Shown: positions 8,317-11,410 of the stretch, piece after piece
Position numbering within the stretch: the stretch's first letter is position 1
Layout of the letters: every line of letters begins with the position of its first letter
Assembly (NCBI GenBank): GCA_020059745.1
Contig: JAGVBK010000003.1
Span: forward strand, 134,492-196,353
DNA: 61,862 nucleotides
Direction: 5' to 3'
Source: Candidatus Shapirobacteria bacterium
Lineage (GTDB): Bacteria; Patescibacteriota; Microgenomatia; UM-FILTER-40-11
Notes under the pieces: model-generated
Seen by the model: only the letters and a program-made list of their open reading frames with translations
The model's database searches: none
What the model was told of the DNA's origin: nothing
Translations under genes and position numbers: made by a program

Positions 8317-9853
8317 TTTTAAGATAATTATCATACTATTTTTGAGTTTATTTCTTAGATTGGCAAATTTAAACCAATCTCTTTGGCTGGATGAGGCAGT
8401 TCAGGCGATAACAGCCAAGGAAAGCTTTGGTTATATTTTTCAGGAAATAGTTGGAGATTTTCATCCTCCGTTGTATCACTTTTTAATGCATTTTTGGGTT
8501 AGAGTATTTGGCAGCTCTGAAATTGCCCTAAGAATACCTTCTGTAATTTTTGGAGTATTAACAGTTTGGGTAGTTTACAAAATAGCCCAGGAGTTATCGG
8601 TTATCAGTGGTCAGGGGTCTGTAGGCGGAAAAATACCGACAACCGTTAATCGATCACTAGCCGCTATTGCCGCTTTGTTTATGGCAACCGCGCCTTTCCA
8701 TATTTATTACTCTCAGGAAGCAAGGATGTACAGCATGACTTGTTTTTTTGCTTCTCTTTCGATGTATTACTTTTTAAAGGTAATCGGTGATCGGGTATCA
8801 GCGACCAGTGAAAAACCGATTACCAGTAGCAGACTCCTGATGGCTGAATATTTAATTTCCTCAGCCTTGCTAATTTATTCTGATTATTATGGCTTTTTAA
8901 TAGTTCTGTCTCAGGGAATTTATTTATTAATAAAAAGAAAATATAAATACTTAATACTCAACACCTTCTTCTTAATACTAATTTTTGTGCCTTGGTTGCC
9001 TATGTTTTTAAAACAAGTTAATGCAGGGATAACGGCTACTCATATTCTTCCTGAATGGGGGGAGCTGGTAAACCTTAGTTTTTTTAAGGCCTTGCCTCTC
9101 ACTTTTGTTAAGTTTAGCCTTGGTAGAATTACGATTTTTGACAAAAGGCTTTACTTTGCAATTTCTTCTCTGTTGGTTGGAATTTATGGCTTTTTTATCA
9201 TAGGAGGCTTTAGTTATCAGTTATCCGTGATCAGAGATCGGTATTTAGCTATTGAAAAAAAAAGACAGATTACTGGTAACTGGTCACTGATTGCTATTTG
9301 GACTTGGTTTTTTGTGCCATTAATTTTAGCTTGGGGTGCATCTCTTTTTGTGCCCAACTACCAGCCTTTTAGATTACTTCTGATCATTCCTGCTTTTTAT
9401 CTTCTTTTAGCTTTTGGCATAAGCTCTTTTAAAAATAAAACTGTTCAAATAGCACTTTTTAGCTTTGTTGTTATAACGAACCTTCTTTCGGCTTCTTTTT
9501 ACTATTTTAATCCCTTTTTTCAGCGCGAAGACTGGAAAGGAGTGGCGGATTATGTGATTAGAAAAAATGCCTTGGCGGTTCTCCCTTCAGAAACATCGTT
9601 TTGGCCCCTTAGGTATTATGATTCCCAGAACAAAATTGAGATTGCTTTTGGGAGCAGGGGGATAGAAAAGGTTGGAAGTAAGCCTTTAAACATAGCTAGT
9701 TCAGAAAAAGTTTTCTATATTAGATATCTGGTTCCGCTCTTTGACCCTCATGAAAAAATCCTCAAACATCTTGAAGAACTTAACTATAGTAAAATTAAAG
9801 AAACTAGTTTTAACCAAATTCCCGTTTGGGAATACCAAAGGAGTAACCAGTGA
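8294..9853 (+). CDS. GT-C fold membrane glycosyltransferase (GT39/PMT_2-like) carrying three in-frame heptad-repeat insertions
   Basis: Motifs LWLDEAVQAITAKE and HPPLYHFLMHFW in a multi-TM protein. Peptide blocks ELSVISGQGSVGGKIPTTVNRSL, VIGDRVSATSEKPITSS and YQLSVIRDRYLAIEKKRQITGNWSLI are encoded by heptad-periodic DNA. The stop TGA lies inside a heptad (ACCAGTGA). Confidence 0.85.
   Translation: MKTFLKINFKIIIILFLSLFLRLANLNQSLWLDEAVQAITAKESFGYIFQEIVGDFHPPLYHFLMHFWVRVFGSSEIALRIPSVIFGVLTVWVVYKIAQELSVISGQGSVGGKIPTTVNRSLAAIAALFMATAPFHIYYSQEARMYSMTCFFASLSMYYFLKVIGDRVSATSEKPITSSRLLMAEYLISSALLIYSDYYGFLIVLSQGIYLLIKRKYKYLILNTFFLILIFVPWLPMFLKQVNAGITATHILPEWGELVNLSFFKALPLTFVKFSLGRITIFDKRLYFAISSLLVGIYGFFIIGGFSYQLSVIRDRYLAIEKKRQITGNWSLIAIWTWFFVPLILAWGASLFVPNYQPFRLLLIIPAFYLLLAFGISSFKNKTVQIALFSFVVITNLLSASFYYFNPFFQREDWKGVADYVIRKNALAVLPSETSFWPLRYYDSQNKIEIAFGSRGIEKVGSKPLNIASSEKVFYIRYLVPLFDPHEKILKHLEELNYSKIKETSFNQIPVWEYQRSNQ
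8593..8658. repeat. Heptanucleotide-periodic dyad element A (left arm, A-rich loop, right arm), in frame inside the GT39 gene
   Basis: Left arm gttatcggttatcagtggtcagg, loop ggtctgtaggcggaaaaata, right arm ccgacaaccgttaatcgatcac. The right arm matches the reverse complement of the left arm at most positions. Confidence 0.7.
8779..8845. repeat. Heptanucleotide-periodic tract B with partial dyad symmetry, in frame inside the GT39 gene
   Basis: GGTAATC GGTGATC GGGTATC AGCGACC AGTG aaaaa CCGATTA CCAGTAG... ggtaatcgg and ccgattacc are perfect reverse complements, but the overall palindrome is weak. Confidence 0.55.
9213..9292. repeat. Heptanucleotide-periodic dyad element C, in frame inside the GT39 gene
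   Basis: Left arm gttatcagttatccgtgatcagagatcggtat, loop ttagctattgaaaaaaaaaga, right arm cagattactggtaactggtcactgatt. About 19 of 30 positions are complementary by hand alignment. Confidence 0.7.
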
Positions 9854-10265
9854 CCAGTGATCAGTTGTCGGAAAATATAAAAATAAGAAGCTTTCGAGAT
9901 TTAGAAATCTGGCAGGAAGCTCACAGTTTGGTGGTTGAAATATACAGAATTACTAAGAATTTTCCAAAGGAAGAAATTTATGGGCTGAACTCACAGATTA
10001 GGAGATCAGCTTCTTCTGTTGCTGCTTGTATTGTTGAAGGACACAGCAGGAATACGACAAAAGAGTTTATCAAATTTTTGTATGATGCAAGGGCTTCGGC
10101 AGCCGAGACGGAGTATCATTTATTGCTTTCAAAAGACCTTAACTATCTGAGTGTGGAAATTTGTGAAAATTTTAGCAGCAGGTATCAGATTCTAGGTAGA
10201 AGGATAAATGCTTTAATAAACAGTCTTGATAAAACCGGCCACCGATAACTGGTGGCTGATTACTG
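9845..10265 (+). repeat. Heptad dyad element D whose loop contains the four-helix-bundle gene (IVS-like cargo-carrying copy)
   Basis: Left arm aaccagtgaccagtgatcagttgtcgg (9845-9871). Right arm aaaaccggccaccgataactggtggctgattactg (10231-10265) begins with the same AAAACCG junction seen in the empty elements. The arms are about 17 of 25 complementary by hand alignment. Confidence 0.65.
9850..10248 (+). CDS. Four-helix-bundle protein (23S rRNA intervening-sequence protein family, PF05635/TIGR02436-like)
   Basis: IRSFRDLEIWQEAHSLVVEIYRITKNFPKEEIYGLNSQIRRSASSVAACIVEG...ETEYHLLL is a textbook match to this family. AAGGAG at 9838-9843 lies 6 nt before the GTG start, which overlaps the upstream stop as GTGA. 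Confidence 0.9.
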   Translation: MTSDQLSENIKIRSFRDLEIWQEAHSLVVEIYRITKNFPKEEIYGLNSQIRRSASSVAACIVEGHSRNTTKEFIKFLYDARASAAETEYHLLLSKDLNYLSVEICENFSSRYQILGRRINALINSLDKTGHR

Positions 10266-10267
10266 AA

Positions 10268-11410
10268 GTGAAAATAGGAATAGATATTAGCCAAATTGCC
10301 TATGAAGGAACCGGGGTAGCTACTTACACTCGCTGTTTGGTTGAGGCGATAGTCAAGCTTAACCGGGAAGATAATTTTGTCCTTTTTGGCTCTTCTTTAA
10401 GAAACAAAAAACCTATTGTCGAGTTTGTAAAAAATCTTGAAGCAAAAAATGCTAAAAAGAAGCTGTCCTTTTTCCCGCCAAAACTGCTTGAGTTTTTGTG
10501 GAACGGTATTCATGTTCTTCCCGTGGAGACAATAACCGGACCCTTGGATGTTTTTCATTCCTCCGACTGGCTGGAGCCTCCTACCAGGGCTGCGAAAAGA
10601 GTAACTACGGTTCATGACTTGGCAGTTTTTAAGTATCCGGAAACTTTTTCCAAAAGAGGCGGGCATGACATTGTTAAAAATCAAAAAAGAAAACTATTTT
10701 TTGTTAAAAGACATTCCGACCTTGTGATTGCAGTTTCTGAGACTACAAAAAAGGACTTAGTGGAAATCCTTAAGATTCCGGAAAAGAGGATAAGGGTGGT
10801 TTATGAGGCAGCAGAGCCGGTTTACTATCCAAGGGGGAAAGAGCAGGCAAATGAAACGAAAAAGAAATTTGCCATTGAGGGAGATTATCTTTTATGCGTC
10901 GGCACCAGAGAGCCGCGTAAAAACCTAGAAAGGGTAATCAGGGCTTTTGCAGAAATTACCGCAGGAAACAAGGAAATTTCTTTGGTTATTGCCGGAAAAT
11001 ATGGTTGGGGAGAGGACTTTGGCGGTGATCAGTTATCAGTGATCGGTAATCGGATAAAATTGCTTGGCTTTGTGGAAAAAGAAGAGCTGGCCAGGCTTTA
11101 CAGCGGAGCCAAGGCTTTTTTGTACCCTTCGCTTTATGAAGGGTTTGGCTTGCCTATTGTTGAAGCAATGAGCTGCGGAACTCCGGTAATTACTTCTGAG
11201 GTTGGTTCAATGAAAGAAATTGCCGAAGGCGTTGGGCTTTTGGTAAACCCTCAAAGTGTTGAAAGCATTGCCGGGGCAATTTCTAAAATTACCCGCAGCG
11301 AGAAGCTAAGAGAGGAGCTTAAAGTAAAATCTTTGAAAAGAGCAGGGGATTTCAGTTGGGAAAAAGCGGCTTTGCAGACAATGGAAATTTATCGACAAGT
11401 TGCTTCGTGA
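10268..11410 (+). CDS. Glycosyltransferase family 4
   Basis: A GTG start at 10268 gives VKIGIDIS, parallel to the paralogue N-termini MIIGIDAN (14574) and MKIGIDCR (22901). The longer ORF from 10226 would read through the element D right arm. C-terminal motif PSLYEGFGLPIVEAMSCGTPVITS. Confidence 0.85.
   Translation: MKIGIDISQIAYEGTGVATYTRCLVEAIVKLNREDNFVLFGSSLRNKKPIVEFVKNLEAKNAKKKLSFFPPKLLEFLWNGIHVLPVETITGPLDVFHSSDWLEPPTRAAKRVTTVHDLAVFKYPETFSKRGGHDIVKNQKRKLFFVKRHSDLVIAVSETTKKDLVEILKIPEKRIRVVYEAAEPVYYPRGKEQANETKKKFAIEGDYLLCVGTREPRKNLERVIRAFAEITAGNKEISLVIAGKYGWGEDFGGDQLSVIGNRIKLLGFVEKEELARLYSGAKAFLYPSLYEGFGLPIVEAMSCGTPVITSEVGSMKEIAEGVGLLVNPQSVESIAGAISKITRSEKLREELKVKSLKRAGDFSWEKAALQTMEIYRQVAS
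11024..11053. repeat. Heptad tract E (single arm), in frame inside the GT4 gene
   Basis: GGTGATC AGTTATC AGTGATC GGTAATC GG encodes GDQLSVIGNR. It occupies the position of a helix-linker segment present in the paralogues at 14574 and 22901. Confidence 0.65.

Follow-up and report, generated by a model that had tools for sequence, protein, structure and literature searches.

Why does a gene of the family named after intervening sequences (IVSs) of 23S rRNA sit between two glycosyltransferase genes, with tandem 7-nt repeats at both of its ends? The question is raised by a 61,862-nt stretch of a Candidatus Shapirobacteria genome (GCA_020059745.1, contig JAGVBK010000003.1, positions 134,492 to 196,353; hereafter the window, in whose numbering positions are given), where an open reading frame (ORF) for a four-helix-bundle (4HB) protein lies in sense orientation between a PMT_2-type and a GT4 glycosyltransferase gene, enclosed by inverted arms of tandem heptads. 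The same architecture recurs at most of the related loci compared, and the junction that is occupied in the window is empty, or holds a different cassette, in several orthologous operons. On balance, we read the element as probably a mobile gene cassette of the IVS type that resides in an operon of protein-coding genes.

The 4HB gene and its heptad arms

The cassette and its two host genes comprise the following features:

8294–9853, plus strand: upstream host gene, a PMT_2-type (GT-C, GT39/83-like) glycosyltransferase of 519 aa (ORF list, PF13231 match, orthologue alignment)
9838–9843, plus strand: Shine-Dalgarno-like AAGGAG, 6 nt before the 4HB start GTG at 9850 (sequence reading)
9841–9871, plus strand: left arm, tandem heptads GAGTAAC CAGTGAC CAGTGAT CAGTTGT CGG (Tandem Repeats Finder period 7, pattern scan, fold, inverted repeat)
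9850–10248, plus strand: 4HB gene, PF05635 (23S rRNA IVS protein family), 132 aa (Pfam, PDB relatives)
10231–10265, plus strand: right arm, reverse-complement heptads AAAACCG GCCACCG ATAACTG GTGGCTG ATTACTG (pattern scan, fold, inverted repeat)
10236–10258, no strand assigned: local hairpin in the right arm, of GGCCACCGA / UGGUGGCUG type, −15.5 kcal/mol (fold)
10268–11410, plus strand: downstream host gene, a GT4 glycosyltransferase with its GTG start 3 nt past the right arm (Pfam, orthologue starts)

The arms are interlocked with the coding sequences and supply three codons: the PMT_2 stop (TGA, 9851–9853) falls within the left array and is overlapped, as GTGA, by the 4HB start at 9850, while the 4HB stop (TAA, 10246–10248) falls within the right array, so that the arms encode about the first seven codons and the stop codon of the 4HB ORF. 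An equivalent AAAGGAG precedes the GTG start of the 4HB gene in the orthologous locus L005, and the GT4 start at GTG 10268 agrees with the MKIGIDISQ start of orthologues. Within 9700–10400, the arms are the top-ranked inverted repeat (9842–9871 versus 10235–10264, 30 nt, 77% Watson-Crick). When 9830–10280 was folded as RNA, 9848–9871 paired with 10242–10265 in both the minimum-free-energy and the centroid structure, as a stem of 22 bp including 4 G-U pairs, plus two 1×1 mismatches (z-score −2.6; 0 of 100 shuffles folded as well). These results agree on every point with an earlier note on this DNA, which had described the ORF as bracketed by reverse-complement arms of a single heptad family, with overlapping codons, an AAGGAG and arm-borne stop codons, and had claimed that the arms pair. 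No sense-strand promoter or terminator was predicted in the cassette by a promoter/terminator scan. On the minus strand, the right-arm hairpin (10238–10256) followed by CGGTTTTATC has the pattern of an intrinsic terminator, although the terminator count is not above that of shuffled sequences.

The assignment of the 4HB ORF to PF05635 is strong (E 1e-37, 129 bits against a cut-off of 33.8). Its only other Pfam match, to the bAvd-like family PF22296, is weak (E 9e-8, 33 bits) and lies under the curated cut-off of 40. The closest solved relatives are 2GSC (Xanthomonas XCC0516; E 6e-17) and 2RLD, both of them PDB entries with five chains, and XCC0516 has been described as a homopentamer (PMC4990558). 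The nearest named relative comes from a Microgenomates-group bacterium, and no second 4HB gene was found in the window, where tblastn returned a single one. Some residues are invariant across the family alignment, and in comparison with the L005 orthologue dN/dS is 0.04 at a dS of about 1.2. The 4HB protein of the window-type lineage is thus under strong purifying selection and is not a decaying passenger. As an observation on the downstream host gene, the GT4 product matches, besides GT1/GT4 models, PF20706 (“Family 4 glycosyltransferase in conflict systems”, E 3.7e-9).

Occurrence across genomes and turnover at one junction

To place this locus in context, we compared it with 80 metagenome loci, 80 loci of named GTDB genomes (whose 4HB relatives are 38–80% identical to the window protein, and among which the window's own lineage is absent), and orthologous loci of the window's operon. 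Arms were scored as present when flank-to-flank complementarity exceeded the 95th percentile of 566 control ORFs from the same loci. By this measure, complementary arms surround the 4HB gene at 133 of 155 loci, compared with 20 of the 566 control ORFs (Mann-Whitney p 1e-70 for flank complementarity), with a mean ungapped arm stem of 31 nt. Since all loci were picked by similarity to a single protein, the window's 4HB protein (33–87% identity overall), the resulting 86% covers that large subfamily and not all of PF05635. Together with the heptamers in the stem of the Coxiella IVS, described below, this count upholds the earlier proposal of an IVS-type stem-plus-ORF module in an mRNA context.

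The tandem structure is conserved and its sequence is not. Among arms with detectable tandem periodicity, the period was 7 in 72 of 85 upstream and 70 of 82 downstream arms, and 8 in about ten arms per side. Octad cassettes such as those of L025 (2900–3460; TTACTTGG/CCAAYTAA) and L175 (1080–1700; GGGTTAAC/AACTCGTT) indicate that the repeat period is not strictly fixed at 7. Arms contain medians of 4.3 and 4.6 units, with a mode of 4–5. The loci include metagenome-assembled genomes labelled as more than 15 phyla, two of them labelled archaeal, although such taxonomic labels may be imprecise. The repeat unit differs by lineage, as in these examples:

L017: GAYTNGT upstream, CAATCAC downstream
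L026: GAATAGR upstream, TTCTCTG downstream
L092: GGGGTAN upstream, TACCCCN downstream
Four alphaproteobacteria, at nuoC|nuoD: GCGAATA upstream, TATTCGC downstream
L144: TAGGGTC upstream, GACCCTA downstream
L118 and L119, the two labelled archaeal: further, other units
Nostoc punctiforme pNPUN01: GGGTGTG... upstream, ...CCCTACAC downstream
Trichormus variabilis plasmid C: ATTCAGA AGTCAGA... upstream, ATTCTGA CTCCTGA... downstream

The last two come from finished genomes of cultured cyanobacteria, in which, as in Calothrix brevissima, inverted heptads surround annotated “four helix bundle protein” genes, which excludes an assembly artefact. Two paralogous 4HB genes at L182 (100–1600), 43% identical and 650 nt apart on either side of an APS-kinase ORF, have separate units (TTAGCGT/AACGCTA and GTAACGC/GCGTTAC), indicating that the unit goes with the cassette and not with the genome. 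At L031 and L032, AAACGCT-type units lie on one strand at both 4HB flanks, apparently direct and not inverted; the upstream run may be part of a neighbouring element.

Neighbouring genes are mostly co-oriented with the 4HB gene (upstream, 112 on the same versus 15 on the opposite strand; downstream, 108 versus 20), which, along with the lack of a predicted sense promoter or terminator in the window's cassette, indicates that the cassette rides on host transcription. Several sites are used recurrently, namely the nuoC|nuoD junction in the four alphaproteobacteria (L096, L100, L138, L145), the pheS|pheT junction in three Chloroflexota (L154, L155, L166), and a position upstream of obgE in two Patescibacteria (L110, L121). 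Overall, within the subfamily sampled, the combination of stem and PF05635 gene is a family-wide trait.

The PMT_2|GT4 junction of the window could be followed through orthologous operons, listed here by the identity of their GT4 protein to that of the window:

L170, GT4 91%: a different cassette, with arms of TTAACGR units; 4HB 33% identical to the window's
L171/172, GT4 81%: empty, TAA directly followed by ATG, without arms; no 4HB gene
L005, GT4 72%: window-type (type A) cassette; 4HB 87%
L175, GT4 70%: a third type, with octads of GGGTTAAC; 4HB 41%
L176, GT4 69%: the second type, its 4HB 69% identical to that of L170 and 33% to the window's
L173, L174 and L177, GT4 68–69%: empty; no 4HB gene
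L006, GT4 48%: window type (type A); 4HB 80%

The flanking genes closest to those of the window are found in L170, yet the 4HB protein at its junction differs in sequence and its arms in repeat unit. Grouped together, the cassettes of L170, L175 and L176 that differ from the window's (4HB 33–41% identical) are referred to as type B. In four orthologous operons (L171/172, L173, L174, L177), PMT_2 abuts GT4 directly, so that the check for an empty site between the GT39-like and GT4 genes came out positive. Junction states and 4HB identities are incongruent with GT4 identity and host relatedness, indicating that the cassette was gained, lost or replaced. As judged from these alignments, the turnover supports mobility over evolutionary time. 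Of the mobile IVS-like cassette that the earlier note had put forward, gain, loss and replacement at one junction are thus borne out.

ORF-less hairpins, host read-through and competing explanations

Heptads of the same family also occur in the window away from the 4HB gene. An IUPAC unit scan (CRGTDAY/RTHACYG) counted 13 arrays versus 0.3 expected (shuffle maximum 3), all within a glycosylation gene cluster at 8.6–22.1 kb (8591–22093) and none in the remaining 40 kb (22100–61862). This confinement to a cluster of ~14 kb of glycosyltransferase/PMT genes suggests either local spread or a special tolerance of these genes. The junction motif AAAACCG, present in 35 copies versus 16.5 expected, begins the right arm at 10231, 17036 and 22059, and comes after the left array at 8812. 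Five ORF-less hairpins and two solitary arrays were recognised, all of them translated in frame in host proteins:

8591–8662, plus strand: ORF-less hairpin 1, in PMT_2, peptide ...SVISGQGSVGGKIPTTVNRSL..., pairing degenerated (fold z −0.03)
8778–8846, plus strand: ORF-less hairpin 2, in PMT_2, loop GAAAAACCG (fold z −3.0)
9211–9289, plus strand: ORF-less hairpin 3, in PMT_2, peptide SYQLSVIRDRYLAIEKKRQITGNWSLIA (fold z −3.2)
11023–11050, plus strand: solitary left-type array, in frame in GT4 (GGDQLSVIGNR), no partner arm seen and no significant fold
16975–17070, plus strand: ORF-less hairpin in the GT2 gene 16893–17873, between CLESV and EIIVVDNGS, loop AAAAACAAAAAACCG (fold z −5.8)
17138–17172, plus strand: solitary right-type array, likewise within GT2 gene 16893–17873 and in frame, fold not significant
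22019–22093, plus strand: ORF-less hairpin in a second GT2 gene (21943–22893), at the CLESV/EIIVVDN site, pairing degenerated (fold z −1.0)

Three of the five hairpins fold better than shuffles and two no longer do, as expected for relics inside coding sequence; the hairpin at 22019–22093 has A-C mismatches on the plus strand. The left arm of the 16975–17070 hairpin is a perfect 14-nt repeat, TCAGTTATCAGCGA, in 3.8 copies (100% match, 16974–17026), and the two GT2 paralogues share their hairpin site. Hairpin loops are A-rich, end in (A)AAACCG and encode K-rich peptides (KNKKP, KSKKP, SEKP, EKKRQ), and they resemble fused inner junctions of the cassette (GTCGGAAAATA... with ...GATAAAACCGG).

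The hairpins are polymorphic. Alignment with orthologous proteins identified the three PMT_2 hairpins as insertions: hairpin 1, by comparison an insertion of 15–16 aa, is missing in L171, L173, L174 and L006, and L005 (62% identity) has hairpin 3 where L170 (86% identity) shows a gap of 21 aa, so that presence or absence among orthologues does not track relatedness. L170 retains type-A hairpins in PMT_2 despite its type-B junction cassette. At the orthologous GT2 site, L006 carries a hairpin of its own unit variant, TTAGTGA/TCACCAA, as in its 4HB arms, and across loci extra arrays of the locus's own unit were found in 20 of 75, versus 2.0 expected with swapped units (few kb per locus). The notion of the hairpins as cassette derivatives accordingly gained ground from shared units, AAAACCG-type loops and polymorphic insertion. 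As far as these comparisons go, the ORF-less hairpins fit cassette derivatives that have lost the gene, and a hairpin-first origin with later gene capture would be compatible too.

Whole cassettes can likewise be read through by host genes. In 7 of 162 loci (L016, L095, L105, L150, L151, L157, L161; cassette at ~3001–3390 in most), a long host ORF of 600–1270 codons spans the entire cassette. The host frame is always two bases after the 4HB frame, a frame that holds at least 5 stops in 125 other loci, and this stop-free overprinted frame indicates translation of the host protein across the element. The hosts are in all seven cases restriction-modification (R-M) or DNA-methyltransferase genes (Type ISP, MmeI/Eco57I-like, N6_N4_Mtase); the methyltransferase of L095 has the insertion between its YYTP and LDPACGSG segments, and L157 has an additional in-frame ORF-less hairpin (SGEWTVD ×3). 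Each such cassette amounts to an overprinted gene nested within a host-gene insertion.

We propose the following working model for the cassette. The unit consists of about 4–5 tandem heptads, a Shine-Dalgarno sequence, the PF05635 gene, and then reverse-complement heptads, and its arms would pair in the operon transcript as a stem of ~22–30 bp. This stem may be an RNase III substrate, as in the 23S IVSs of Coxiella and Leptospira, such that the insertion would be excised from the transcript or insulated within it. With GTG 9850 inside the stem and overlapping the PMT_2 stop, 4HB translation should depend on ribosomes finishing PMT_2, i.e., it would be coupled to PMT_2 termination through the GTGA overlap. 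A plain stem needs no periodicity, and the 7-nt period, the 4–5 units per arm, the pentamers formed by relatives and a repeat sequence particular to each cassette lead us to infer that a pentameric 4HB protein recognises the tandem heptads, putatively with one unit per subunit, which would explain periodic arms, their ~4–5 units and their cassette-specific sequences. The ORF-less hairpins would be deletion derivatives or landing sites, possibly spread or exchanged by recombination between arrays.

A number of observations weigh against this model. About 14% of the 4HB loci are without clear arms. Repeated occupation of the junction could be explained by homologous allele exchange via the conserved flanking genes instead of transposition, and no target-site duplication, nuclease or recombinase was found associated with the cassette. 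In 124 distinct stems, arm mismatches on the sense strand, scored symmetrically, showed no excess of G-U over A-C (166 versus 191), and such strand symmetry means that the complementarity fits a DNA-level inverted repeat as well as an RNA stem. DNA-level roles, as cruciform or hairpin substrates or in recombination between arrays, may therefore apply as well. A motif screen for conserved 16S/23S segments gave no rRNA-gene context among ~180 related loci, so that the tie to rRNA IVSs comes from published work; an Rfam scan of the window found a single tRNA and no rRNA. RNase III cutting in the window's mRNA would be an extrapolation from rRNA IVSs, the local right-arm hairpin at 10236–10258 competes with the long-range arm stem, and host read-through in the seven loci speaks against RNA cleavage being compulsory for all cassettes. 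Binding of the 4HB protein to the heptads is putative as well, and bAvd, to our knowledge the sole relative studied biochemically, binds reverse transcriptase and RNA, not tandem repeats.

One alternative, which we consider rather unlikely, is a host regulatory module in which a 4HB pentamer would bind tandem heptads of RNA or DNA in trans as a TRAP-like ring, the arrays at its own gene serving as autoregulatory operators and those in glycosyltransferase genes marking its regulon; the resemblance to a cassette would then be incidental. Such a module is suggested by a conserved period with variable sequence and ~4–5 units per arm, by the five-chain crystal structures and homopentameric XCC0516, by the strong constraint on the 4HB protein, and by the clustering of all 13 arrays around the 4HB gene. 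In addition, arrays at the orthologous GT2 site change their unit along with the genome's 4HB arms, and cyanobacterial and Beggiatoa studies have postulated a heptamer-binding factor. However, the junction is empty in four orthologous operons and holds other cassettes elsewhere, which indicates that the operon works without this 4HB protein. L170 combines type-A PMT_2 hairpins with a type-B cassette, several ORF-less arrays are degenerate, and cassettes occur at unrelated sites (nuoC|nuoD, pheS|pheT, upstream of obgE, inside R-M genes). A regulatory module and mobility are compatible with each other.

Glycosyltransferase and R-M genes are classic phase-variable classes, and the arrays could instead be slippage-prone simple sequence repeats (SSRs) acting as contingency loci in such genes, with the 4HB gene beside them by chance. 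As 7 cannot be divided by 3, adding or losing a single unit changes the reading frame; a one-unit slip in the perfect 14-nt repeat at 16974–17026 would shift the GT2 frame, making phase variation possible there; and all seven read-through hosts are R-M methyltransferases. We nevertheless regard this explanation as improbable, as most arrays are imperfect and slippage leaves both the reverse-complement partner arm and the tie to PF05635 unexplained. No unit-number polymorphism was seen either. Near-identical contigs L001–L004 (99.5–100% identical) are without gaps in the heptad regions they cover, and the length of the 14-nt repeat is invariant in L001; this is a very small sample, with L001 the only one that spans all arrays and the sole near-identical contig covering that repeat. 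L001 (NCBI contig QZIO01000018.1, GCA_003599075.1) is 99.995% identical to the window, with one 1-base gap in total. As a side observation, a MurJ flippase gene in the window (5868–7168) is split into two ORFs of 163 and 270 aa and is a single 433-aa gene in L001; the gap may be this MurJ frameshift, as a sequencing error or a real frameshift.

Still less probable, in our view, is that the hairpins are structural elements of the repetitive extragenic palindrome (REP) kind, which stabilise mRNA or end antisense transcription, with the 4HB gene a trapped passenger. While the right-arm hairpin and its minus-strand T-run match a terminator pattern and shuffled sequences fold significantly worse than three of the ORF-less hairpins, the terminator count equals chance expectation, most ORF-less hairpins lie inside coding sequence, and a family-wide, cassette-specific pairing of gene and arms is unexpected for a passenger. 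Finally, candidate phyla radiation (CPR) genomes often carry diversity-generating retroelements (DGRs), and the weak PF22296 match could mark the 4HB protein as a DGR accessory protein (Avd), with the heptads as template/variable repeats (TR/VR) or recognition elements of a reverse transcriptase; we reject this reading, which has next to no probability, since the bAvd score is below threshold whereas PF05635 reaches 129 bits, the repeats are short inverted tandem heptads and not a TR/VR pair of ~100 nt, many loci share the architecture with no reverse transcriptase beside the cassette, and none was found among the called genes within 10 kb on either side in the window (glycosyltransferase, flippase and acetyltransferase families only). 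General repeat scans of the region, none of them aimed at TR/VR pairs, gave only short heptad arrays.

Relation to known systems

Three puzzles may here be one: the role and mobility of the S23p ORF of IVSs, open since the early 1990s; the “four helix bundle protein” genes scattered, often in multiple copies, in cyanobacterial, Bacteroidota, CPR and many other genomes; and the maker or user of heptamer repeats. In-frame translated hairpins and cassettes inside glycosyltransferases and R-M methyltransferases also affect gene calling and protein-family alignments, and an element that rRNA, operon junctions and coding loops all tolerate, with the host gene still functional, might be of use as a natural insulator or as a scaffold for insertions. 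The architecture can be approached in tractable organisms, or with a solved structure (Xanthomonas XCC0516/2GSC, Nostoc punctiforme, Anabaena variabilis).

Published precedents contain several pieces of this architecture. The Coxiella 23S IVS has a 28-bp terminal stem cut by RNase III, with GACAGAT ×3 and a degenerate fourth heptamer in the 5' part of the stem, just upstream of the S23p start; heptamer copy number differs among strains, and the ORF was reported as decaying and untranslated (Warrier et al., PMC4990558). In CPR bacteria, 23S_rRNA_IVP ORFs occur in 16S and 23S insertions (Tsurumaki et al., PMC11270868). TAACTGA heptamer repeats are known from Beggiatoaceae, Cyanobacteria and Bacteroidetes (PMC4679880), and GGGAATC repeats from Xanthomonas, in 70–75 convergent inverted pairs with a modal length of four units (PMC4692102). 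Among the latter, repeat #15 of Xanthomonas campestris ATCC 33913 (GGGAATCGGGAGTGGAGAATCGGGAATC, 4 GGGAATC-type units; 622956–622983) is situated between bccP and XCC0516 and extends over the start codon of the latter, which the authors list only as “conserved”, without comment on a connection (PMC4692102). MacGregor's supplement contains no S23, 23S or four-helix annotation beside TAACTGA repeats, and a full-text literature search, with subscription journals outside its reach, did not find a general link of PF05635 genes to flanking heptad arrays. As far as we found, the association of PF05635 genes with inverted tandem-heptad arms is thus widespread and undescribed.

In comparison with the S23p IVSs of 23S rRNA (Coxiella, Leptospira and others), the cassette likewise has a PF05635 ORF in the loop of a long inverted-repeat stem, sense-oriented in the host transcript, and the tandem heptamers next to the Coxiella ORF are like the cassette arms. 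Unlike an S23p IVS, which sits in rRNA, the window cassette sits in a glycosyltransferase operon, its arms overlap three coding-sequence ends, ORF-less copies lie in frame nearby, and its protein is constrained by purifying selection whereas the Coxiella IVS ORF is reportedly decaying. Family membership and enclosing long-stem inverted repeats were found and location in an rRNA helix was not, hence we file the element as an S23p-IVS kind of cassette in a new context.

The arms also belong with the short tandemly repeated repetitive (STRR), TAACTGA and GGGAATC repeats, which are tandem 7-nt units, mostly in 2–6 copies, often directly ahead of start codons or across stops, and in many cases paired as convergent inverted arrays. 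Rotating the right-arm unit of the window, ATAACTG, gives TAACTGA, and the window arrays have the features of the heptamer-SSR class (tandem 7-nt units, at least 2–3 copies, many genome sites), with all sites here in 8.6–22.1 kb. Heptamer-repeat studies have treated such arrays as free-standing SSRs, G-quadruplex formers or binder sites, with no connection to PF05635.

Rickettsia palindromic elements, of ~70–100 nt, lie in frame in loops of functional proteins, are translated, and are polymorphic among orthologues. The ORF-less hairpins behave like these elements, or like repeats resembling miniature inverted-repeat transposable elements, in being translated, polymorphic in-frame insertions; the Rickettsia elements have no sequence relation to the window hairpins, which have tandem heptads and an ORF-bearing “full-length” form. 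From DGRs, bAvd (the accessory variability determinant) is a pentameric four-helix bundle and a nucleic-acid-associated accessory protein, and its family, PF22296, is related to PF05635, as is the 4HB protein. A DGR, however, has a reverse transcriptase, TR and VR, whereas the cassette has no reverse transcriptase within 10 kb, and DGRs are not known to have heptad arms.

In REPIN-RAYT systems, a gene lies between inverted copies of a repeat which elsewhere in the genome forms hairpins without a gene, and the repeat sequences are lineage-specific and vertically retained at fixed sites. The cassette gene is similarly flanked by an inverted repeat that also occurs as gene-less hairpins. In contrast to the HUH (Y1) transposase and single palindrome of REPIN-RAYT, the cassette encodes a four-helix bundle without known catalytic motif and has tandem-heptad arms, with hairpins also inside coding sequence. 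As a tentative generalisation, which we think possible, if less likely than not, PF05635 pentamers may be the trans-acting partners of STRR, TAACTGA, GGGAATC and the window repeats. The cassette would then be a gene plus its cognate repeat, with one unit per subunit, spreading and maintaining gene-less hairpins, and rRNA IVSs would be a special case of an element found throughout prokaryotes. Such a system, with operon junctions, protein-coding loops and rRNA helices as its targets, would amount to a REPIN-RAYT analogue without catalytic activity.

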